Assembly (NCBI GenBank): GCA_030390025.1
Contig: CM059431.1
Coordinates: forward strand, 95,668,001-95,732,000
Reading direction: 5' to 3'
DNA length: 64,000 nt
Source: Squalus acanthias
Taxonomy: Eukaryota
In this document: piece after piece, positions 13,001-54,000 of the stretch
Position numbering within the stretch: the first letter of the stretch is position 1
Layout: each line of letters opens with the position of its first letter
The notes under the pieces: model-generated
Databases searched by the model: none
Told to the model about the DNA's origin: nothing
Seen by the model: only the letters and a program-made list of their open reading frames with translations
Made by a program: the position numbers and the translations under genes

Positions 13001-13710
13001 TGCTCCTATTTCTTATGTTCTTCTGTTCTTATACCGATCAAGAAAATTCTCCTGAACACACTTCAGAAATTCCGCCCCTTCTCTGCCCCACTCAATATTG
13101 GGGTAGTTAAAGTCTCCCATTATCACTACTCGAGAGTTCTTACACTTCTCAGTATTTTCCTTTCAAATCTGCTCCTCTATCTCCTTCCCACTATTTTGTG
13201 GCCTATAAAATACACAAAGTAGCGTAATAGCTCCTTTATTGTTTCTCAACTCCAACCAAATAGATTCTGTCTTTGATCCCTCAAGGACATTCTCTCTATC
13301 ACTGTAATATTTTCCTTAATCAAAACAGCTAAACCCCCTCCTTTTTTCCCTACCCTATCTTTCCTGAATACCTTGTACCCAGAAATATTAAGCATCCAAT
13401 CCTCCCCTTTTTCGAGCCAGGTCTCAGTTATTGCCACTGCATCATATTCTCTCATGGCTATGATCCCACCTAATTCTGTATTATTACCAACTCTAACTGT
13501 CTCTCCCTCTGTGCACCTTGTTTCTACTTTTTAATAATATATCCTGGTGCCCAACCCCCTGGCGAATTAGTTGAAACCTATCCCCACAGAACTAGTTAAC
13601 CTACCTGCAAGGATATTGGTCCCAGCTCTGTTCAGGTGCAAATCGTCCATCTTGAACAGGTCTCTCCTGCCACAGAACTGGTCCCAATGTCCCAGGAATC
13701 TGAAGCCCTC
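10061..13710 (-). mobile_element. Older CR1 LINE with internal deletions; hosts a Penelope fragment; its ORF1 resumes at ~17111-17290
   Basis: Tail ATAGAATCATAG at 10061; RT motifs (VDVVYMDFQKAF, NYRPVSLTS) and EN motif (AITETWL) on the minus strand. Confidence 0.85.
10653..11652 (+). mobile_element. Penelope-like element fragment: RT C-terminus, Cys-rich linker and GIY-YIG endonuclease (Neptune-like)
   Basis: Uninterrupted frame: RYIDDIFFLW (10653), FLD, LYRKPTD, PCHGNLCKTC, NVVYLIRC...WYIGET, LRQRMNRHR. Confidence 0.92.
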
Positions 13711-16700
13711 ACTCATAGAGTCATAGAGTTATACAGCACAGAAAGAGGCCCTTCGGCCCATCGTGTCCGTGCCGGCCATCAAGCCCTGTCTATTTTAATC
13801 CCAGTTTCCAGCACTTGGTCCATAGTCTTGTATGCTATGGCACTTCAAGAGTTCATCTAAATGCTTCTTGAATGTTGTGAGGGTTCCTGCCTCTACCACC
13901 CTTTCAGGCAGTGAGTTCCAGATTCCAACCACCCTCTGGGTGAAAAAGTTTTTCCTCAAATCCACTCTAAACCTCCTGCCCCTTACCTTGAAACTATGCC
14001 CCCTGGTTATTGACCCCTCTACTAAGGGGAAAAGTTCCTTTCTATCTACCCGATCTATGCCCCTCATAATTTTGTACACCTCAATCAGGTCCCCCCTCAG
14101 CCTTCTCTGCTCTAAGGAAAACAACCCCAGCCTGTCCAGTCTCTCTTCATAGCTGAAGCGCTCCAGCCCAGGCAACATCCTGGTGAATCTCCTCTGCACA
14201 CTCTCCAATGCAATCACATCCCTCCTATAGTGTGGCGACCAGAACTGCACACAGTATTCCAGCTGTGGCCTAACTAGCGTTTTGTACAGCTCCATCATAA
14301 CCACCATGCTCTTATAATCTATGCCTCGGTTAATGAAGGCAAGTATTCCATATGCCTTATCTACCTGCCCTGCTGCCTTCAGGGATCTATGTACATGCAG
14401 ACCAAGGTCCCTCTGATCCTCTGTCCTTCCTAGGATCCTACCATTCATTGTGTATTCCCTTGCCTTGTTAGTCCTCCCAAAATGCATCACCTCACACTTT
14501 TCAGGGTTAAATTCCATTTGCCACTGTTCTGCCCATCTAACCATCACGTCTATATCGTCCTGTAGCCTGAGGCTTCCCTCCTCGCTATTTACCACCCCAC
14601 CAATTTTCGTGTCATCTGCAAACTTACAGATCATACCTCCTACATTCATATCTAAATCATTAATGTACACTACAAACAGCAAAGGACCCAGCACCGATCC
14701 CTGCGGTACACCACTGGACACAGGCTTCCAGTCACAAAAACAACCTTCGACCATCACCCTCTGCCTCCTGCCACTAAGCCAATTTTGGATCCAATGTGCC
14801 AAATTGCCCTGAATCCCATGGGCTCTTACCTTCTTGACCAGTCTCCCATGTGGGACTTTATCAAAAGCCTTACTGAAGTCCATGTAGACTACATCAACTG
14901 CACTACCCTCATCCACACACCTAGTCACCCCCTCAAAAAATTCAATCAAATTGGTCAGACATAATCTCCCCCTGACAAAGCCATGCTGACTATCCCTGAT
15001 TAATCACTGCCTCTCCAAGTGGAGACTAATTCTGTCCCTCAGAATTTTTTCCAATAATTTCCCAACCACTGATGTTAGGCTCACTGGCCTGTAATTCCCT
15101 GGTTTATCCCAACTACCCTTCTTGAATAATGGTACTATGTTAGCTGTTCTGCAGTCCTCTGGCACCTCCCCTGTGGCCAGAGAGGTTCTGAAAATTTGTG
15201 TCAGAGCCCCTGCAATCTCCTCTCTTGCCTCACACAGCAGCCTGGGATACATCCCGTCAGGGCCTGGGTATTTATCCACTTTTAAGCCCGCTAAAACCTC
15301 TAGTACCTCCTCCCTCTCAATACTAATTTGTTCAAGTATATCACAATCCCCCTGCCTGATTTCTATGCCTGCATCACCCTTCTCCATAGTGAACACAGAT
15401 GCAAAATATTCATTTAAAACCTCACCTACATCTTCCAGCTCTACACACAGATTGCCACTTTGGTCCCTAATGGGCCCTACTCTTTCCCTGGTTATTCTCT
15501 TGCCCTTAATATACTTATAAAACACCTTGGGATTTTCCTTTATTTTGCCCGCCAGTGTTTTTTCATGCCCCCTCTTCGCTCTCCTAATTTCTTTTTTAAG
15601 TACCCCCATGCACTTTCTATACTCCTCTGGGGCTTCCACTGTTTTTAGTCCTTTGTATCTGCCAAAAGCCTCCCTTTTTTTCCTAATCTATTCTTGTCTA
15701 TCCCTTGACATCCAGGGTTCCCTGGGCTTGTTGGTCCCACCCTTGACCTTTACGGGAACATGTTGGCATTGTACTCTCTCTATTTCCTTTCTGAAAGACT
15801 CCCATTGCTCTGATGTGGATTTTCCTACAAGTAGCTGATCCCAGTCCATTTTGGCCAGATCCTCCTTATCATATTAAAATCGGCCTTCCCCCAATTTAGA
15901 ACCTTTATTTCCAGTCCATCTTTGTCCTTTTCCATGACTACCTTAAATCTCACTGAATTATGGTCACTGTCACCAAAATGCTCTCCTACTAACACATCTA
16001 CCACTTGCTCGGCTACATTCCCTAGAATTAGGTCCAGTACCGCCCCCTCTCTTGTAGGACTTTCTACATGCTGGCTCAAAAAGCTCTCCTGGGTGCACTT
16101 TAAGAATACCGCACCCTCTGAGCCTTTCACATTCTGACTATCCCAGTTAATATTGGGGAAGTTGAAATCCCCTACTATTATTATCCTATTATTTCTACAC
16201 TTCTCTGAGATTTGCCTACATATCTGTTCCTCTATCTCCCCCTGAGTGTTTGGGGGCCTATAGTACACTCCCAGCAAAGTGCTTGCCCCCTTTTTGTTTT
16301 TAAGTTCTACCCATATGGCCTCATTAGAGGAACCTGCTAAGATATCATCCCTCCTTACAGCAGTAATTGACTCCTTGATTAATATTGCGACACCCCCTCC
16401 TCTTTTACACCCCCCTCTGTCTCGCCTGAAGATTCTATACCCTGGAATATTGAGCTGCCAGTCCTGCCCCTCCCTCAACCATGTCTCTGTGATAGCAACA
16501 ATATCATACTCCCATGTGTTCATCAACACCTTCAATTCATCTGCCTTACTCGCAAGACTCCTTGCATTAAAATAAATGCCATCCAGCCTTGTCATACTCC
16601 CTTGTGCCGTTACATATTTGCTCTGCCTTCCAGGCTGACTTGTTTTTCCCTCTATATTTGGCTGTGCATCACCCTCTACTATAGCTCCACTCCGTATCCC

Positions 16701-17110
16701 ATCCCCCTGCTGAGTTAGTTTAAACAACCCCCAACTGTACCAGCAAACCTCCCCGCAAGGATGTTGGTCCCGTTCCGGTTCAGTTGTAACCCGTCCAACT
16801 TGTACAGGTCCCACCTTCCCCAGAAGCAGACCCAGTGATCGAGGAAACTAAAGCCCTCCCTCCTGCACCAACTCTTTAGCCACGCATTCATCTGCTCTAT
16901 CCTCCTATTCCTATACTCACTAGCACGTGGTACCGGGAGTAATCCAGAGATTACAACCTTTGAGGTCCTGCTTTTTAATCTGCTACCTAGCTCCCTGAAT
17001 TCTTGTTGCAGGACCTCATCACTCTTTCTACCCATGTCGTTGGTACCAATGTGAACCACGACCTCTGACTGTTCGCCCTCCCCCTTCAGAATGCCCTGTG
17101 GCTGTTCAGT
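13711..17110 (-). mobile_element. Young CR1 LINE, 5'-truncated within ORF1; ORF2 broken by a few frameshifts/stops
   Basis: ORFs 16715-17173 (esterase end), 15825-16814 (APE endonuclease), 15004-15639 and 13795-14949 (RT, FADD); nearly the same protein as the 46318-50410 copy. Confidence 0.95.
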
Positions 17111-17290
17111 GCATCCTGCACCATGTCTGTAGCCATGCATTAACCTGCCATATCTTCCTATTTCTAATCTCATTAGCGTGTGGCACTGGAAGTAATCCAG
17201 AGATTACTATACTGAGGTCTTGCTTTTTAACTTCCTCCCCAGCTCCTGAAACTCTGACTGCAGGACCTCAACCCTCTTCCTCCCTATTTC

Positions 17291-17400
17291 GCTGCTCCTT
17301 CGTCAGGTGATTTCAAATAAAGCTGTTGGACTATAACCTGGTGTTGTGCGACTTCTCACTTTTGTCCACCCCAGTCCAACACCGGCATCTCCGCATCATG
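17291..17400 (+). mobile_element. Short Penelope pseudo-LTR/tail fragment with a small 5' inversion
   Basis: Matches 6001-6094; preceded by the inverted half-hammerhead GCTGCTCCTTCGTCAG. Confidence 0.8.
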
Positions 17401-18702: not shown

Positions 18703-18974
18703 AAAGAACCTAAATATTAGATTTTTAGATACTTAACTTAGAATCCTTGGGTTCTGTGGCTCCACTCCTTCTTTTGTGTTGAACATGAGAAACCGCCTTC
18801 CTCCTCTCCACCGAATCCCTACTATCACCACACTCTCAGCTTCCACTCTGTGATCCACTCCGATTGCAATTTACCCAACTCTGTCTCCAAGCTCTGTGCT
18901 CAAGCTCTTTTTACGCTACCCATGTAAAATAAACTATCACCAGTGTTAAATCAACTCCAATTGGAAAATCGAGG

Positions 18975-19325
18975 CCAATGAAGGAAAGGGAAAGGGAAAA
19001 TGAGAAAATAAAAAGAGAGAGGTGAGAAAAGAAGAGAGGGAGTAAAGAAGAGAGGGAGAAAAGGAGAGAGAGAGGGAGAAAAAGAGAGAGCAAAGAGAGA
19101 GAATATGAGGGGGCGAACAGAGGGGAGAACGGGAGAAAAGAGAGGAGGATTAAAAAGGAGAAAAGGAAATAAACCAGCGAAGAAAAAAAGAAAAAAAGAG
19201 AAGAAAAAAGGACAAAAAAAAATAAAAAGAGAAGAAAAAGAAGAGATAAAAGTGAAAAGGAGAAAATAAAATAAAAGGACTTGCATTTAAAAAACACAAG
19301 AAAAATCAGAGATAAGGAAAGATCA
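18975..19325. repeat. A/G-rich low-complexity polypurine tract
   Basis: About 350 bp of almost only A and G; produces spurious F/L/S-rich minus-strand ORFs. Confidence 0.9.
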
Positions 19326-19337
19326 TTTGAAGTTAAT

Positions 19338-19727
19338 CGGGGAGAAATTCATTATTGCCCAGTGAAACAGCACTAACCTGAGAGTGCGACTCATTACTCA
19401 TGATCCCTTTAAGTAGCCCCCTGGAGCCGGCTACCAATTGCTTCTCACCTCCTCTCCCTGTCGCTGATGGGGCGAGGCACTAAGGCATGGGGCCATAATC
19501 AATTTCGCAGATCGGGCGCCCAATGAGCGTTGCACGCTCACTGACGTCATGATCTGCCTTCTGCTTAAGTCCCCGGTGCTAACTCGTAGCAGCGGAGCTA
19601 TGGGGGGGGAGGGCGAATTTGGCGTGTAGCGCTGGATTCGCCTCACCACAGCGCTACTGCCTCAGCATCCTGTAAGCACACCCGCCAGGTGCTAATTGGA
19701 GGCACTAAGGTACCAAATTTCTCCCCC
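19338..19727. mobile_element. Harbinger-type MITE (390 bp)
   Basis: TIRs (C)GGGGAGAAATT / AATTTCTCCCCC; AAT on both flanks. Confidence 0.7.
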
Positions 19728-46317: not shown

Positions 46318-47382
46318 ATGGCAGGGCTGCTCGGCAGCGTGGAGTGCTCCTCCTGTGCTATGTTGGAAGTCAGGGACACTTTAGGTGTCCAGGGCAAACA
46401 CATGTGCAGGAAGTGTCTCCAGCTGCAGCTACTCGAAATCTGCGTTTCAGAGCTGGAGCTGCGGCTGGAGTCACTGTGGAGCATCCACGAAGCTGAGATC
46501 TTCGTGGATAGCACGTTTAACAAGGTGGGCACACCGCAGTTAAAGAGTGCACAGGCAGACAGGGAATGGGAGACCACCAGACAGAGTAAAAGAACTAGGA
46601 AGGTAGTGCAGAAATCCCCTGGGTCCATCTCCCTCTCCGACAGATTTTCCGTTTTGGATACTGATGGGGGAGAGGGTTTCTCAGGGGAATGCAGCAAGAG
46701 CCAAGTCCGTGGCACTACGACTGGCTCAGCTGCACAGGAGGGGAGGAAAAAGAGTGGGCGAGCAATAGTGATAGGGGATTCTATCGTAAGGGGAACAGAT
46801 AAACGTTTCTGTGGCCGCAGACATGACTCCAGGATGGTATGTTGTCTCCCTGGTGCCAGGGTCAAGGATGTCACTGAACAGCTGCAGGGCATTCTGAAGG
46901 GGGAGGGCGAACAGTCAGAGGTCGTGGTTCATGTTGGTACCAATGACATGGGTAGAAAGAGGGATGAGGTCCTGCAACAAGAATTTAGGGAGCTAGGTAG
47001 CAGATTAAAAAGCAGGACCTCAAAGGTTGTAATCTCTGGATTACTCCCGGTGCCACGTGCTAGTGAGTATAGGAATAGGAGGATAGAGCAGATGAATGCG
47101 TGGCTAAAGAGTTGGTGCAGGAGGGAGGGCTTTAGTTTCCTGGATTACTGGTTCTGCTTCTGGGGAAGGTGGGACCTGTACAAGTTGGACGGGTTGCACC
47201 TGAACCGGAACGGGACCAACATCCTTGCGGGGAGGTTTGCTAGTACTGTTGGGGGGGGGTTTAAACTAACTTGGCAGGGGGATGGGATACGGAGTGGAGC
47301 TATAGTAGGGGGTGATGCACAGCCAAATATAGAGGAAAAAACAAGTCAGCCTGGAAGGCAGAGCAAATATGTAAAGGCATAA
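46318..47382 (+). CDS. CR1 ORF1 (zinc finger, leucine zipper, SGNH esterase); C-terminus extended by an extra base in the G-run at 47251-47259
   Basis: CSSC...CRKC, heptad leucines, IGDS, PGA, HVGTND, DGLHLN. Confidence 0.9.
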   Translation: MAGLLGSVECSSCAMLEVRDTLGVQGKHMCRKCLQLQLLEICVSELELRLESLWSIHEAEIFVDSTFNKVGTPQLKSAQADREWETTRQSKRTRKVVQKSPGSISLSDRFSVLDTDGGEGFSGECSKSQVRGTTTGSAAQEGRKKSGRAIVIGDSIVRGTDKRFCGRRHDSRMVCCLPGARVKDVTEQLQGILKGEGEQSEVVVHVGTNDMGRKRDEVLQQEFRELGSRLKSRTSKVVISGLLPVPRASEYRNRRIEQMNAWLKSWCRREGFSFLDYWFCFWGRWDLYKLDGLHLNRNGTNILAGRFASTVGGGFKLTWQGDGIRSGAIVGGDAQPNIEEKTSQPGRQSKYVKA

Positions 47383-51023: not shown

Positions 51024-54000
51024 ATTTACCTTTTGTAAATCCATGTTGACTTTGTCTGATCCTGTCACTGTTTTCCAAGTGCTCTGCTATTACATCTTTT
51101 ATAATGGACTCTAGCATTTTTCCCACTACCGATGTCAGACTTTTTAAATAGTGGGGTTACATTAGCTATCCTCCAATCCATGGGAACTGTTCCAGAGTCT
51201 ATAGAATTTTGGAAGATGACCAGCAATGCATCTACTATTTCTAGGGCCACTTCCTTAAGTACCCTAGGATGTAGATTATCAGGCCCTGGGGAGTTATCGG
51301 CCTTCAATCCCGTCAATTTCCCTAACACCATTTCCCTACAAATACTGATTTCAATCAATTCCTCCCTCTCATTAGACCCTATGTTCCCCGACATCTCTGG
51401 AAGATTATTTGTGTCCTCCTTTGTGAAGACAGAACCAAAGTATGTATTTAATTGATCTGTCATTTCTTTGTTCCCCATTATAAATTCCCCTGATTCTGAC
51501 TGCAAGGGACCTATGCTTGACTTCACCAATCTTTTTCTCTTCACATATCTATAGAAGCTTTTACAGTCAGTTTTTATGTTCCCTGCAAGGTTACTCTCAT
51601 AATCTATTTTCCCCCTCTTAATTAATCCCTTTGTCCTCCTTTGCTGAATCCTAAACTGCTCCCAATCCTCAGGTTTACTGCTTTATCTGGCCAAATTATA
51701 GGTCCTCTCCTTGGATCTTATGCTATCCCTAATTTCCCTTGTTAGCCATGGTTGAGTCACCTTTTTTGCTTTATTTTTATGCCAAACAGGGATGAACAAA
51801 TTCTGTAGTTCATCCATGCGATCTTTAAATGTTTTCCATTGCCTATCCACCATCAACCCTTTAAGTAACATTCCCCAATCCATCCTAGCCAACTCGTGCC
51901 TCATACCATCGTAGTTTCCTTTGTTTGAATTCAGGACCCTAGTCTCTGAGTCAACTACTTCATTCTCCATCTTAATGATTAATTCTATCAAATTATGATT
52001 GCTCCTCCCCAAGGGGCAGCACACAACAAGATTGCTAATTAATCCTTTCTCATTTCATAATACCCAGTCTAAGATGGCCTGATCTCTAGTTGGTTCCTCG
52101 ACATATTGGTCCAGGAAACCATCCCGTATACACTCTAGGAATTCCTCCTCCACAGTATTGTTACTAATTTGGTTAGCCCAATCTATATGTAGATTAAAGT
52201 CACCCATGATAACTGCTGTGCCCTTATTGCACACATCTCTAATTTCCCGTTTAATGCCATCCCCAACCTCAGCATTACTGTTTGGGGGTCTGTATACTCT
52301 CCCACTAACGTTTTCTGCCCCTTGGTATTTCTCAGCTCTGCCCATACAGATTCCACATCATCAGAGCTAATATCCTTCCTTACAATTGTGTTAATCTCCT
52401 CTTTAACCAGCAATGCTACCCCACCTCCTTTTCCTTTTTTCCTGTTCTTCCTGAATATTGAATACCCATGGATGTTGAATTCCCAGACTTGTTCATCCTG
52501 GAGCCATGTCTCCGTAATCCCAATTATATCATATCCTTTTACATCTATTTGCGCAGCTAATTCATCCACCTTATTACGAATGCTCCTCACATTAAGACAC
52601 AACCTTCAGGCTTGATTTTTTAACACTCTTAGTCCTTTTAGAATTATTATTTACTGTGGCCCTGTTTGATTTACACCCTTGATTTCTCTGCCTTCCACTT
52701 TTGCTTTTCTCCTTCCTATCTTTTATTTCTATCCTTGCTTCCCTTTCCTCTGTCTCCCTGCACAGGTTCCCAACCCCCTGCCATTTTAGTTTAAACCGTC
52801 CCCAACAGCACTAGGACATTGGTTCCGGTCCCGCCCAGGTGCAAACCGTCCAGTTTGTACTGGTCCCACCTCCCCCAGAACCGGTTCCAATGTCCCAAGA
52901 ATTTGAATCCCTTCCCCTTGCACCATTCCTCTAGCCACGTATTCATCTGAAATATCCTTCTATTTCTACTCTGACTCGCATGTGGCACTGGTAGCAATCC
53001 TGAGATTACTACCTTTGAGGTCCTATTTTTTAATTTACCTCCTAACTCCCTATATTCAGCTTTTAGGACCTCATCCCATTTTTTACCTATATTGTTGGTA
53101 CCTGTATGCACCACGACAACTGGCTGTTCACCCTCCCCCTCCAGAATGCCCTGCAGCCGCTCCGAGACATCCCTTGCACCAGGGAGGCAACATACCATCC
53201 TGGATTCTCGTTTGTGGCTGCAGAAATGCCTATCTATTCCCCTTACAATAGAATCTCCTATCACTATAGCTCTCCCGCTCTTTTTGCTCCCGTCCTGTGC
53301 AGCAGGACCACCCATGGTGCCAGGAAGTTGGCTGCTGCTGCCTTCCCCTGATAAGCCATCCCCCTCAACAATATCCAAAGTGATATATCTGTTTGCAAGG
53401 GGGATGGCCACAGGGGACCCCTGCACTACCTGCCTGCGCCCTCTGCCTGGTGGTCACCCATTCCCTTCCTGCCTGTGCAGCCTTTACCTGCGGTGTGACC
53501 AACTCCCTAAACGTGTTATCCACGATGTGCTCAGCATCGTGAATGCTCCAGTATGTATCCATTCGCAGCTCCAGCACCGCAATGCGGTCTGTCAGTAGCT
53601 GCAGCTGGATACACTTCCCGCACTCATCCTAGTGCAATCATACCAATTAACAACACACAAGGGTAGGTACTCTGGTGTTTTATGCAATGTTCATGTAAAG
53701 TTTCTGTTAATGTGCTGTCAAACATTGAAACCTTTATTTTCAACACTTTGCGTTCTTGGTCAGATTTGTGTGCACCTTTGGAAGTGGCTTAGTGAGTTGC
53801 AGTGAATGGTGAGACATAACGGTCCTCCCCGCAATGGTGATGAGTGTGAAAGGAATGGCTTGGTCATTGTAGGGATGCTTTAGTGTGTTGGTGTGGGGTG
53901 GTGCCAACCTGGCGCATCATGTGGCAGCCAGGGTGTACAACGTGAAGTGAAGTAAATCTGGCCATGGTGAGGCCATCCCTGGCCTCCCAGGCAGCAATGT

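Follow-up and report, generated by a model that had tools for sequence, protein, structure and literature searches.

Based on comparisons of sequence, we propose that the copying enzyme of shark CR1 LINEs is probably made as an extension of the ORF1 protein, in the manner of retroviruses, and on balance we favour low-level programmed -1 frameshifting as the route to such an ORF1-ORF2 fusion. Most ribosomes would make the 316-residue esterase ORF1 and stop at the UAA or UAG adjoining U UUA AAC, and a minority would slip back by one base, with tRNA-Leu moving from UUA to UUU and tRNA-Asn from AAC to AAA or, at an alternative slip site in five of the six lineages compared below, on an overlapping G GGU UUA. 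Shifted ribosomes would then read the -1 frame across 47-71 codons of linker, a basic and fast-evolving stretch, into the endonuclease (EN) and the reverse transcriptase (RT). The predicted product, a fusion of ORF1, linker, EN and RT, would comprise about 1270-1290 residues and, on the logic of retroviral Gag/Gag-Pol, be small in amount relative to ORF1p. We infer the slippage and its efficiency, as well as any aid it may receive from the stop codon next to the heptamer and from a G-tract situated 8-10 nt downstream. A preliminary description of this DNA had already envisaged a gag-pol-like fusion of esterase ORF1 to EN-RT, a reading that gains support from heptamer conservation, open -1 linkers and the absence from lineages B and E of an in-frame AUG before the endonuclease.

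The ORF1/ORF2 junction in the window

The window, i.e. the whole stretch of 64 kb from Squalus acanthias analysed here, contains a CR1 copy of lineage A whose ORF1/ORF2 junction reads ...GGG GGT TGT TTA AAC TAA CTC AGC AGG GGG ATG GG on the minus strand. Within it, T TTA AAC (16718-16724, minus strand) is the slippery heptamer, in X XXY YYZ register with TTA and AAC being ORF1 codons, and is directly adjoined by the ORF1 stop TAA (16715-16717, minus strand), which is TAA, TAG or TGA in other lineages. In the list of open reading frames, the 3' part of ORF1, an SGNH/GDSL esterase in the 0 frame, occupies 16715-17203 (minus strand) and ends in ...GGCLN plus TAA (GRFAGTVGGCLN*); the ORF2 frame (15825-16847, minus strand) reads ...GLFKLTQQGDG...MTRLDGIYFNARSL.... 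Since position 16724 starts an ORF2-frame codon and lies one base 5' of the ORF1 codon TTA, ORF2 is in the -1 frame. Minus-strand sequence and frame list thus bear out the earlier claims that T TTA AAC sits in register at the ORF1 stop and that the -1 frame is open from there into the endonuclease.

Downstream of the stop, a G-rich motif (CAGGGGGATGGG, 16698-16709, minus strand), whose G5 run begins 10 nt past the heptamer, is a candidate linear stimulator. It lies in the linker between ORF1 stop and endonuclease (16569-16714, minus strand), which is open in the -1 frame for 52 codons counted from the heptamer (16724) and has its sole in-frame ATG at 16595-16593, shortly before the endonuclease Asn codon at 16568-16566. 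The apurinic-type endonuclease domain of ORF2 (15825-16568, minus strand; Exo_endo_phos, E 6e-15; Exo_endo_phos_2, E 2.6e-13) begins with ...YFNARSL, and the remaining ORF2, encoding the reverse transcriptase (13795-15687, minus strand; RVT_1, E 7e-27), is split into two frames (15004-15687 and 13795-15003). This copy is decayed: ORF1 has been shortened to 162 codons by an upstream stop, ORF2 has fallen into three pieces, and a mutation affects the -1-frame stop that usually stands five codons upstream of the heptamer. In sister copies, intact ORF1 measures 316 aa, matches Pfam Lipase_GDSL_2 (E 7e-15) and has the zebrafish ZfL2-1 ORF1p esterase as nearest solved structure (4c1b, E 2e-29); ZfL2-1 is an element with a published retrotransposition assay. 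The element combines an esterase ORF1 with an apurinic-type endonuclease/reverse transcriptase ORF2 (Lipase_GDSL_2, Exo_endo_phos, RVT_1), and we apply the name CR1 on the strength of this ORF1 and of homologues termed CR1-group in the relevant part of a 2026 survey, rather than of an RT phylogeny against L2/Rex1. As a side observation, contigs of four sequencing runs, three of them presumed RNA, span the junction; no variant is listed for 16715-16724, and depth is lowest over the G-run.

A window-wide search placed the exact 10-mer TTTAAACTAA only at 16715-16724 (minus strand), 47260-47269 (plus strand) and 52786-52795 (minus strand), with a decayed version, TTTCAACTAA, at 13567-13576 (minus strand). 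Each of the four heptamers closes an esterase ORF1 at its 3' end and has an endonuclease downstream of it, and all four junctions are followed by CAGGGGG(A/T)TGGG, in agreement with the recurrence of heptamer, TAA and G-rich motif noted before at 47260-47266 (plus strand), 52789-52795 (minus strand) and, decayed, 13570-13576. The second lineage A junction (TTTAAAC TAA CTTGG CAGGGGGATGGG; 47260-47286, plus strand) has a private in-frame TAA in its linker at 47380-47382, the lineage B junction (TTTAAAC TAA AATGG CAGGGGGTTGGG; 52769-52795, minus strand) a 2-nt deletion late in the linker, and the decayed lineage C junction (TTTCAAC TAA TTCGC CAGGGGGTTGGG; 13550-13576, minus strand) has lost about 90 nt of it. 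Such recurrence within the window is homology of repeat copies rather than a set of independent events, and comparison of diverged lineages is more informative.

Conservation of the heptamer and variation of the G-run

Six diverged CR1 lineages (A, B, C, D, E and G) of the 3.7 Gb genome were compared. A has ORF1 proteins 66% identical to those of B, and at the lower end of the range stands the D-type protein P0047, about 43% identical to A. NNT TTA AAC plus a stop is invariant in all six, of which A, B, C, E and G, being only about 70-75% diverged in DNA, are not fully independent samples; the stop itself varies between TAA, TAG and TGA. Intact heptamers occur in 28 of 30 copies of A, 24 of 26 anchored copies of B, 17 of 21 copies of C, 7 of 8 in both D and E and 10 of 11 in G, plus one G copy with the equally slippery TTTAAAT. 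When one copy per lineage is anchored, T TTA AAC TAA is the sole fully invariant stretch of that length from -60 nt to +30 nt. The first heptamer base, which is the third base of a preceding Gly, Ala or Cys codon, is T in every lineage, TTA accounts for only 29 of the 250 Leu codons in ten ORF1 copies, and the overlapping G GGT TTA is present in five lineages. With stop and flanking codons varying around a fixed heptamer, conservation exceeds what the protein needs, and the fixed wobble T speaks against the possibility, allowed for in the preliminary description, that the heptamer is kept merely as Leu-Asn codons. U UUA AAC is the coronavirus ORF1a/1b slip site and also a deltaretrovirus pro-pol site, and G GGU UUA is the site used by the yeast L-A virus.

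This fixation bears on our main rival explanation, in which ribosomes that terminate at the ORF1 stop remain bound to the RNA and reinitiate some few codons further on in the ORF2 frame, either at a non-AUG codon (B, E) or at a linker AUG (A, C, G). We consider it unlikely, albeit deserving of serious weight. The position of the stop codon is as conserved as the heptamer, and LINE-1 and SART1 use termination-linked mechanisms, as outlined in the pertinent passages of reviews. Reinitiation, however, leaves unexplained why the nucleotides of ORF1's three final sense codons are fixed in the X XXY YYZ pattern, including a rare Leu codon and the preceding wobble base, while the stop varies.

Polymerase slippage is another option: Pol II or the element's own RT might add one G to the run before the heptamer (G8 to G9) and so bring the RNA in frame. 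Natural in-frame variants, caused by one extra G in that run or by a 5-nt deletion that removes the stop, do have open frames of up to 1290 and 1270 aa, from which it follows that the -1 frame is continuous through the whole of ORF2. Run length varies among lineage A copies, with G9 giving frames up to 1290 aa, and haplotypes common to G9 and G8 copies imply that the change recurs. We nonetheless judge slippage of this kind extremely improbable. The long G-run is not conserved, with G4AG3 preceding the heptamer in B and G, G5TG3 in C and AGAGGGC in D, yet ORF2 stays in the -1 frame in all. Moreover, cis-preference is known for L1, and if only G9 RNAs gave cis-acting ORF2p, new copies should mostly be G9; instead, the frame-separated G8 state is the commonest among the copies listed (67 of 100 and 58 of 100), ahead of G9 (18, 22), G10 (5, 6) and G7 (4, 11) in a hand count over the first 100 places of two listings. 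A separate idea, that G9 in-frame copies form a subfamily of their own, from which the fusion would be seen to be transposition-competent, gained no support, on account of the haplotypes common to G9 and G8 (10 versus 10 copies, 12 informative sites).

Linkers, start codons and the downstream G-tract

Linkers are non-homologous between lineages, A-versus-B nucleotide homology ending directly after the G-rich motif, and range from 47 to 71 codons. In A, B, D, E and G the -1 frame of the linker is free of stops (0), whereas each other frame has 3-11 of them (for A, 5 and 3), which goes against the earlier concern that stops might be common in -1 linkers; in lineage C, the -1 frame is open in undamaged copies. 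Among composition-matched shuffles, the stop-free share is 0.03 for A, 0.009 for B, 0.002-0.006 for D and 0.07 for E. Upstream, no more than 4-5 codons of the -1 frame are open ahead of the heptamer in 20 of 28 copies of A and likewise 20 of 28 of B, and the productive ORF1/ORF2 overlap, which has the heptamer at its end, amounts to about 25 nt. The preliminary description had called for junctions to be aligned across CR1 subfamilies and vertebrates: a heptamer in register and an open -1 linker hold across the DNA of all six lineages, and other vertebrates are represented by proteins only.

The downstream frame, open from the heptamer, has no obligatory start codon. Lineages B and E are without an in-frame ATG from the ORF1 stop as far as the N of NARS; one D sub-lineage likewise has none before the endonuclease, and where linker ATGs occur, their positions are not conserved. 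In A, C and G, an in-frame ATG stands 3-9 codons ahead of the endonuclease; it could act as an independent start and as such favours reinitiation, which does not, however, explain why the 43-62 codons between stop and ATG stay open in these lineages. Similar to SART1, a silkworm telomeric LINE with a UAAUG stop-start and downstream structure, CR1 would tie ORF2 expression to the ORF1 stop with no intergenic region, the arrangement given for SART1 in the pertinent review passages. Unlike SART1, no AUG overlaps the CR1 stop or lies a few nt from it, as a restart of the TURBS or SART1 type would have it, and the first in-frame ATG is absent or 16-62 codons off in each of the six lineages.

The lack of an AUG in B and E might also be accommodated by internal entry, in which no translation of ORF1 would be needed for ribosomes to be set down on a non-AUG codon of the ORF2 frame, the linker or the G-rich motif acting as the entry element. 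Such entry is raised for LINEs in general in the passages concerned of a 2013 review on non-LTR protein biogenesis. For CR1 we take it to be very improbable, given that linkers are unrelated between lineages and have no better-than-random structure, and that heptamer conservation would be left unaccounted for.

Around 8-10 nt downstream of the heptamer, a G-tract is found in all six lineages, which in D takes the form GTGGGGGGGAGG at 8 nt. Folding of the 3' region, advocated earlier as a search for a hairpin, pseudoknot or G-quadruplex, gave no conserved hairpin or pseudoknot stimulator: no fold is shared over the 60-130 nt after the site (MFE z-scores -4.0 to +1.7), a hairpin clearly better than random is confined to lineage C, a crude pseudoknot scan yielded nothing beyond shuffles and a two-layer G-quadruplex entered the MFE structure in lineage A only. 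In place of the 3' stimulatory structure expected 5-9 nt after a heptamer, we found only the conserved G-tract; from a bare U UUA AAC, shifting of only about a percent is expected.

Both the missing frameshift-stimulating structure and the conserved linear motif just past the stop suit reinitiation, in a version where the 40S subunit would be retained, as by calicivirus TURBS, on the G-rich motif (which contains UGGGA in A, B and E) and ORF2p would be a separate protein like that of LINE-1. Against this version, lineage D is without the UGGGA core, and UGGGA lies downstream of the stop in A, B and E, whereas the known TURBS motif is upstream of the stop-start site. With regard to frameshifting, the arterivirus nsp2TF C-rich motif and cardiovirus 2A exemplify protein-dependent stimulators with linear or distant 3' elements. 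CR1 would resemble them in having a conserved unstructured tract about 10 nt past the shift site and no pseudoknot, a likeness by sequence analogy, as the CR1 tract is G-rich. According to the passage on stimulators in the Atkins 2016 review, a minority lie 12-15 nt downstream and work with trans-factors.

Compared with the Gag-Pol type of retroviruses, LTR retrotransposons and coronaviruses, CR1 likewise has a canonical X XXY YYZ in register where the upstream ORF ends, and its polymerase ORF lies in the -1 frame with a brief overlap and lacks a start codon of its own; the ratio of structural protein to enzyme would be expected to follow shift efficiency. CR1 differs in being a non-LTR LINE, in that its upstream protein is an SGNH esterase rather than Gag, with no protease to cut the fusion, and in having an adjacent stop plus a G-tract 8-10 nt downstream in place of a 3' hairpin or pseudoknot. 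Akin to LINE-1, the CR1 RNA is bicistronic, and ORF2 is expected in far lower amounts than ORF1p. Unlike LINE-1, where an inter-ORF spacer has in-frame stops and no known slippery heptamer, CR1 has an overlap of about 25 nt, a canonical heptamer and an open linker. For L1, the ORF2 AUG is dispensable. That LINE-1 ORF2 is translated by termination/reinitiation, as the preliminary description had it, agrees with the passage of the Atkins 2016 review in which LINE-1 is said to use some mechanism other than bypassing. The same review, in its section on mobile elements, gives pol in the -1 frame for 28 of 51 animal LTR elements surveyed and, as the sole non-LTR frameshift named there, that in gag of the Drosophila telomeric element HeT-A. 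The latter is unlike the CR1 junction in that it lies within gag and joins no reverse transcriptase, HeT-A having none.

Wider meaning and relatives in other species

Our literature search found no report of a -1 frameshift joining CR1 ORF1 to ORF2; work by Kapitonov and Jurka from 2003, which reportedly defined the esterase ORF1s and possibly treats the junction, was outside its scope. Beyond LINE-1 and a few insect elements, translation of LINE ORF2 is an open question according to the 2013 review in the part concerned, and CR1-group elements are described in the corresponding part of the 2026 survey as the dominant retrotransposons of most non-mammalian vertebrates. If our frameshift proposal is true, LINEs and retroviruses would have one common solution to setting the ratio of structural protein to enzyme, and the active enzyme would have a lipid-directed esterase at its N-terminus, which bears on where the ribonucleoprotein forms. 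A recoding rule would be needed by annotation pipelines that call ORF2 from the first ATG as well as by those that fuse both frames into host gene models, an outcome seen among the homologues. A 200-nt reporter would suffice for a direct test.

A wider and rather doubtful reading sees G GGU UUA AAC (minimally U UUA AAC), the stop and the G-tract about 10 nt downstream as an ancient -1 signal. On this view, an ORF1-ORF2 fusion would be the sole form in which EN-RT is made by all jawed-vertebrate esterase-ORF1 CR1s, the dominant repeats of birds, turtles, crocodiles and many fishes among them, and the G-tract would be a new, structure-free stimulator. The age of the signal would be at least that of the split between D-type and A-type, lineages with ray and chimaera counterparts. 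The G-tract would possibly have a host G-tract-binding protein, or else ORF1p itself, as its reader and, in the latter case, ORF2 synthesis would be self-regulating.

Among 96 ORF1p homologues that have kept the C-terminal motif, LN is the exact ending of 88, and 85 of these also agree in tail length; the homologues range over sharks, rays, coelacanth, a teleost, frogs, turtles, lizards and snakes; the eight exceptions include a chimaera ORF1p (Callorhinchus P0052), which ends in ...ALNY. Positions -10, -7, -6, -3 and -2 of ORF1p, with L at -2 and a small residue at -3, are all hydrophobic or small and fit the hydrophobic face of a terminal helix. Conservation of ...LN may hence in part be a protein constraint and is not diagnostic of the heptamer, the cross-vertebrate evidence being at the protein level. 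We also set aside as a weak argument that the residue before LN is NNU-compatible in 86 of the 88, since a residue on the hydrophobic side of a helix is seldom K, E or Q in any case.

A search for longer fused ORF1-ORF2 proteins gave one relevant match, P0121, and P0121 run against 1.84 billion representatives returned mostly ATG-starting ORF2 fragments, with no FKL junction beyond P0035, P0082 and P0121. A metagenome scan recovered, apart from bacterial SGNH hydrolases, just three distant LINE-like loci, none with the signal; a scan of prokaryote genomes gave only bacterial hydrolases, and a scan of viral contigs had no match. The three fusions, all from rays, are two Hypanus sabinus gene models (P0035, P0121) and an ENA protein (P0082), which read ...GG-FKL-(D/N)(V/L)-QGAG... 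or ...D-FKL-DRLGGG across the junction into LYLNARSV. FKL in these ray proteins is the -1 reading of TTTAAAC. A further database protein, P0128, begins with MQGDG, which suggests, from its sequence, a lineage elsewhere with an ATG at a stop-proximal place.

The CR1 ORF1/ORF2 junction in the window

On the minus strand, the window sequence at the junction reads ...GGG GGT TGT TTA AAC TAA CTCAG CAGGGGGATGGG..., and the ORF list places two frames here: the ORF1 frame (16715..17203, minus strand), which ends ...GTVGGCLN*, and a second, ORF2 frame (15825..16847, minus strand), which reads ...GLFKLTQQGDG...SMTRLDGIYFNARSLASKADEL.... As the second frame has a codon beginning at 16724, which precedes the ORF1 codon TTA by one base, it is the -1 frame, and the slippery heptamer T TTA AAC (16724-16718, minus strand) thus lies in X XXY YYZ register of ORF1. 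Both the heptamer at the ORF1 stop and an ORF2 open in the -1 frame from there into the endonuclease had been pointed out in the preliminary description and are real. So is the recurrence it reported, since the exact 10-mer TTTAAACTAA is found three times in the window and a decayed, one-mismatch form at 13567-13576, all four sites being ORF1 ends followed by CAGGGGG(A/T)TGGG.

The intact family ORF1 (316 aa) is a GDSL/SGNH esterase (Pfam Lipase_GDSL_2, E 7e-15) with zebrafish ZfL2-1 ORF1p esterase (4c1b, E 2e-29) as its closest solved structure; the -1 frame is an apurinic-type endonuclease (Exo_endo_phos, E 6e-15) and the piece after it a reverse transcriptase (RVT_1, E 7e-27). Together, these matches identify the element as a CR1-group LINE whose ORF1 encodes an esterase, as previously assigned. 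The copy at 16.7 kb is dead, its ORF1 being reduced to 162 codons and its ORF2 fragmented. A tblastn search with the ORF1 C-terminal part gave two extra weak matches (residues 54-81 and 73-114) directly upstream of the main match, at 17115-17296 (minus strand), which points to an internally duplicated or rearranged ORF1 in the dead copy. At 13550-13830 (minus strand), a lineage A copy ends around 13712 in a tail of short repeats (...ctctatgactctatga) and, as this 3' end sits within the 3' end of ORF1 in an older copy, of lineage C, the arrangement is a nested CR1-in-CR1 insertion. The low-complexity stretch at 18911-19348, whose long open frames, on both strands, are rich in Ser/Leu/Phe and in Lys/Glu/Arg, looks like simple-repeat DNA rather than a gene. 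In a 20-sequence alignment, the ORF1p N-terminus (e.g. L008:736-1683, a genomic copy) has a (near-)invariant Cys pattern (C10, C13 ... C30, C33), followed in all ORF1 proteins by a heptad-like Leu-rich stretch; it may form a zinc-binding knuckle and a coiled coil preceding the esterase.

Heptamer, linker and G-tract in diverged lineages

Junction relatives in the 3.7 Gb assembly are near-identical and number thousands, three queries giving 1959, 3072 and 4478 first-look candidates. Because copies 92-97% alike hold the heptamer by descent, we instead compared diverged lineages, sampling real genomic copies rather than building a consensus: A (n=30, including sub-type F with GCTAGC instead of GCTAGT before the G-run), B (n=30), C (n=21), D (n=8), E (n=8) and G (n=11). 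The A ORF1 protein shares 66% identity with that of B, 43% with the database protein that led to D and 52% with the one that led to E. Near-identical lineage A junctions also occur in sequencing runs X4-X19 from at least seven other organisms, so this is a young CR1 family common to several related species.

TTTAAAC is intact in 28/30 A, 17/21 C, 7/8 D and 7/8 E copies, in 24 of the 26 B copies anchored by our search pattern (4/30 were not) and in 10 of 11 G copies, the eleventh carrying TTTAAAT, which is slippery in form too; these losses match the neutral decay expected in dead copies. Conservation beyond the Leu-Asn codons had been set beforehand as a test, and the codon before TTA, be it GGT, TGT or GCT, ends in T throughout all six lineages. 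The stop, on the other hand, varies: apart from one TGA in D, lineages A to E have TAA, and in G it is TAG (6), TAA (4) or lost (1). Hence, the fixed unit is the heptamer plus the stop position, not one particular 10-mer. T TTA AAC TAA is the sole fully invariant stretch of that length between -60 and +30 nt when one copy per lineage is anchored on the heptamer and compared ungapped. Lineages A, B, C, E and G read GG GGT TTA AAC and so hold a second in-register heptamer, G GGT TTA; as D reads GCT TTA AAC, the element common to all lineages is U UUA AAC. TTA is a minority Leu codon in ORF1 (29 of 250 Leu codons in ten copies).

Downstream, homology between A and B ends directly after the G-rich motif, and the linker, measured from the heptamer up to the NARS Asn of the endonuclease, differs in length (52 codons in A, 68 in B, ~66 in C, 69-71 in D, 47 in E, 60-66 in G). 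Its -1 frame has no stop in undamaged copies as opposed to 3-11 in each other frame (C judged by eye), so the open -1 linker noted previously extends to the other lineages, and both sequence-based checks proposed with the preliminary interpretation came out in its favour. Mononucleotide shuffles (5000 trials) were stop-free in only 3% (A), 0.8-0.9% (B), 0.2-0.6% (D) and 7% (E) of cases. The frame stays open for at least 70 codons past the heptamer in 29/30 lineage A copies; lineage B is older, and 11/26 of its copies read through, the others having private indels or stops. Upstream, a TAG 4-5 codons before the heptamer closes the -1 frame in 20/28 A and 20/28 B copies and is also visible in C, D and G, which narrows the stretch joining the ORFs to only ~25 nt with the heptamer at its end.

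These data bear on how ORF2 may be translated. Termination-reinitiation at a non-AUG codon would account for the fixed stop position and for the G-rich motif past it. What it leaves unexplained is the heptamer at the nucleotide level, as well as the open stretch upstream of the in-frame ATG in A (one, at codon 43, nine codons before NARS) and in C and G (one, 3-4 codons before NARS), and we regard it as possible but rather doubtful. No in-frame linker ATG is found in B and E, and in D its position varies or it is absent (L118). As catalysis in this endonuclease family involves the NARS Asn and the ITETW Glu, a start further downstream would be useless. Internal entry, in turn, fits neither the heptamer nor linkers that are unstructured and unrelated between lineages, and seems to us very improbable. 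Low-level -1 frameshifting is the most economical reading of these sequences and, in our view, somewhat more likely than not: slippage on U UUA AAC, alone or together with G GGU UUA, would yield an ORF1-linker-EN-RT fusion beside abundant free ORF1p. The stop directly past the site may aid slippage by slow decoding while two tRNAs occupy the slippery codons.

No conserved hairpin, pseudoknot or G-quadruplex was found 3' of the site, where the preliminary description had proposed to look for one. Over 60-130 nt past the site, RNA folding in A, D and E is no better than in shuffles (z between +1.7 and -1.0), B is borderline (z -2.4 at 60 nt) and clear structure appears in C only (z to -4.0), with no fold shared across the lineages compared; a simple scan found no H-type pseudoknots above shuffles, and quadruplex-allowed folding placed a two-layer G4 in the optimum for A only. 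With 18-33% pyrimidine, the region has little available for pairing. What it does conserve is a G-tract alone: in A, B, C, E and G this reads CAGGGGG(A/T)TGGG, with the G5 run beginning 10 nt after the heptamer, and in D GTGGGGGGGAGG, beginning 8 nt after it. According to the portion of the Atkins 2016 recoding review available, a minority of frameshift stimulators are more distant from the site and work as linear RNA together with trans-factors.

Copies with ORF1 and ORF2 in one frame

ORF1 protein searches returned some copies with open frames of 545 to 1290 residues. Four of these (L130-L133, sub-type F of lineage A) have nine Gs, not eight, before the heptamer, and genome-wide the lineage A G-run is length-polymorphic from G7 to G10 (e.g. 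L130-L133, L141-L150), G9 merging ORF1 and ORF2 into a single open frame, up to 1290 aa long. Two whole-genome patterns gave 157 and 758 matches, and lengths hand-counted among the first 100 listed of each were 67 and 58 for G8, 18 and 22 for G9, 5 and 6 for G10, 4 and 11 for G7, and 6 and 3 for other lengths; G9 is thus two to four times commoner than G7 among these matches. Polymerase slippage in the G-run could in principle join the frames, but B, C, D and G lack the run and G8 copies predominate, making this explanation extremely unlikely. Ten G9 and ten G8 copies have the same haplotypes at 12 informative sites, indicating that the extra G arises repeatedly rather than marking a fused subfamily. 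In lineage E, a 5-nt deletion in L128 (G000:C14:54879160-54879654, Squalus acanthias assembly) takes out the heptamer end and the stop, fusing both ORFs into one 1270-aa open frame. These in-frame variants establish that the -1 frame runs unbroken through the entire ORF2; they speak for frame continuity rather than for activity of the fusion.

ORF1p relatives and previous work

Searching 5.8 billion proteins with ORF1p gave 144 relatives, and the 120 best, which we examined, include sharks, rays, a chimaera, coelacanth, a mormyrid teleost, frogs, turtles, lizards and snakes. The C-terminal G-L-H-L motif is kept in 96 of these 120, and ...LN is the exact end in 88 of the 96, with a 25-residue tail in 85 of the 88 and the last six residues in 50 different forms. 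The eight exceptions end ...IN (P0027), ...VN (P0115), ...LNLNG (P0041) or ...LNY (P0052, Callorhinchus), are truncated (P0069), run on beyond ...ALN as a gene model (P0111) or read across the junction (P0035, P0082); a third protein of the latter kind, P0121, came from longer proteins. Their junctions (P0035, P0082, P0121: ...REG-FKL-NLQGAG..., ...RGG-FKL-DVQGAG..., ...WRD-FKL-DRLGGG..., then ...LYLNARSV) contain FKL, the -1 reading of TTT AAA CTN, and QG.G, that of the G-rich motif, so that rays (two of the three, P0035 and P0121, being gene models from Hypanus sabinus) have the same arrangement. The putative frameshift signal is common to rays and to every esterase-ORF1 CR1 lineage sampled in the Squalus acanthias genome. 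Other vertebrates were compared at the level of the protein ending. Here, hydrophobic or small residues occupy each of the ORF1p positions -10, -7, -6, -3 and -2, as on one helix face, and K/E/Q/M/W occur at -3 in only 2/88 LN-ending relatives; the conserved Leu and the rarity of these residues may hence be protein constraints, and the LN ending lends weaker support than it appears to.

The full-text literature covered contained no paper linking CR1 or L2 elements to ribosomal frameshifting, although older work on chicken and turtle CR1 may include a brief remark on the -1 frame; 'CR1', 'ribosomal frameshift' and 'retrotransposon' co-occur only in papers on avian leukosis virus and vaccines. 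In the portions available, the Atkins 2016 review names HeT-A as its sole non-LTR case, a 2013 review of non-LTR protein biogenesis treats ORF2 initiation as an open question and leaves frameshifting unmentioned, and a 2014 ORF1 survey, the 2013 esterase structure paper and a 2026 CR1-group survey do not address frames or overlap. The CR1 junction would be a new use of a known mechanism, for which it stands as an unproven candidate.

One ORF2-type protein from a representative library (P0128) starts MQGDG..., so in that lineage ATG replaces the Trp codon before QG.G in the ORF2 frame, which would provide a stop-proximal AUG a few bases past the ORF1 stop. Several CR1 ORF1 sequences (P0008, P0018, P0098/P0101, P0121) are publicly named as host or bacterial genes. 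A 'SGNH/GDSL hydrolase [Pseudomonas aeruginosa]' on a 4 kb contig, 60% identical to shark ORF1p, is probably contamination, and chimeric gene models probably underlie '40S ribosomal protein S24 isoform X2', 'transmembrane protein 204 isoform' and 'hydroxyacid oxidase 2 isoform X1'.
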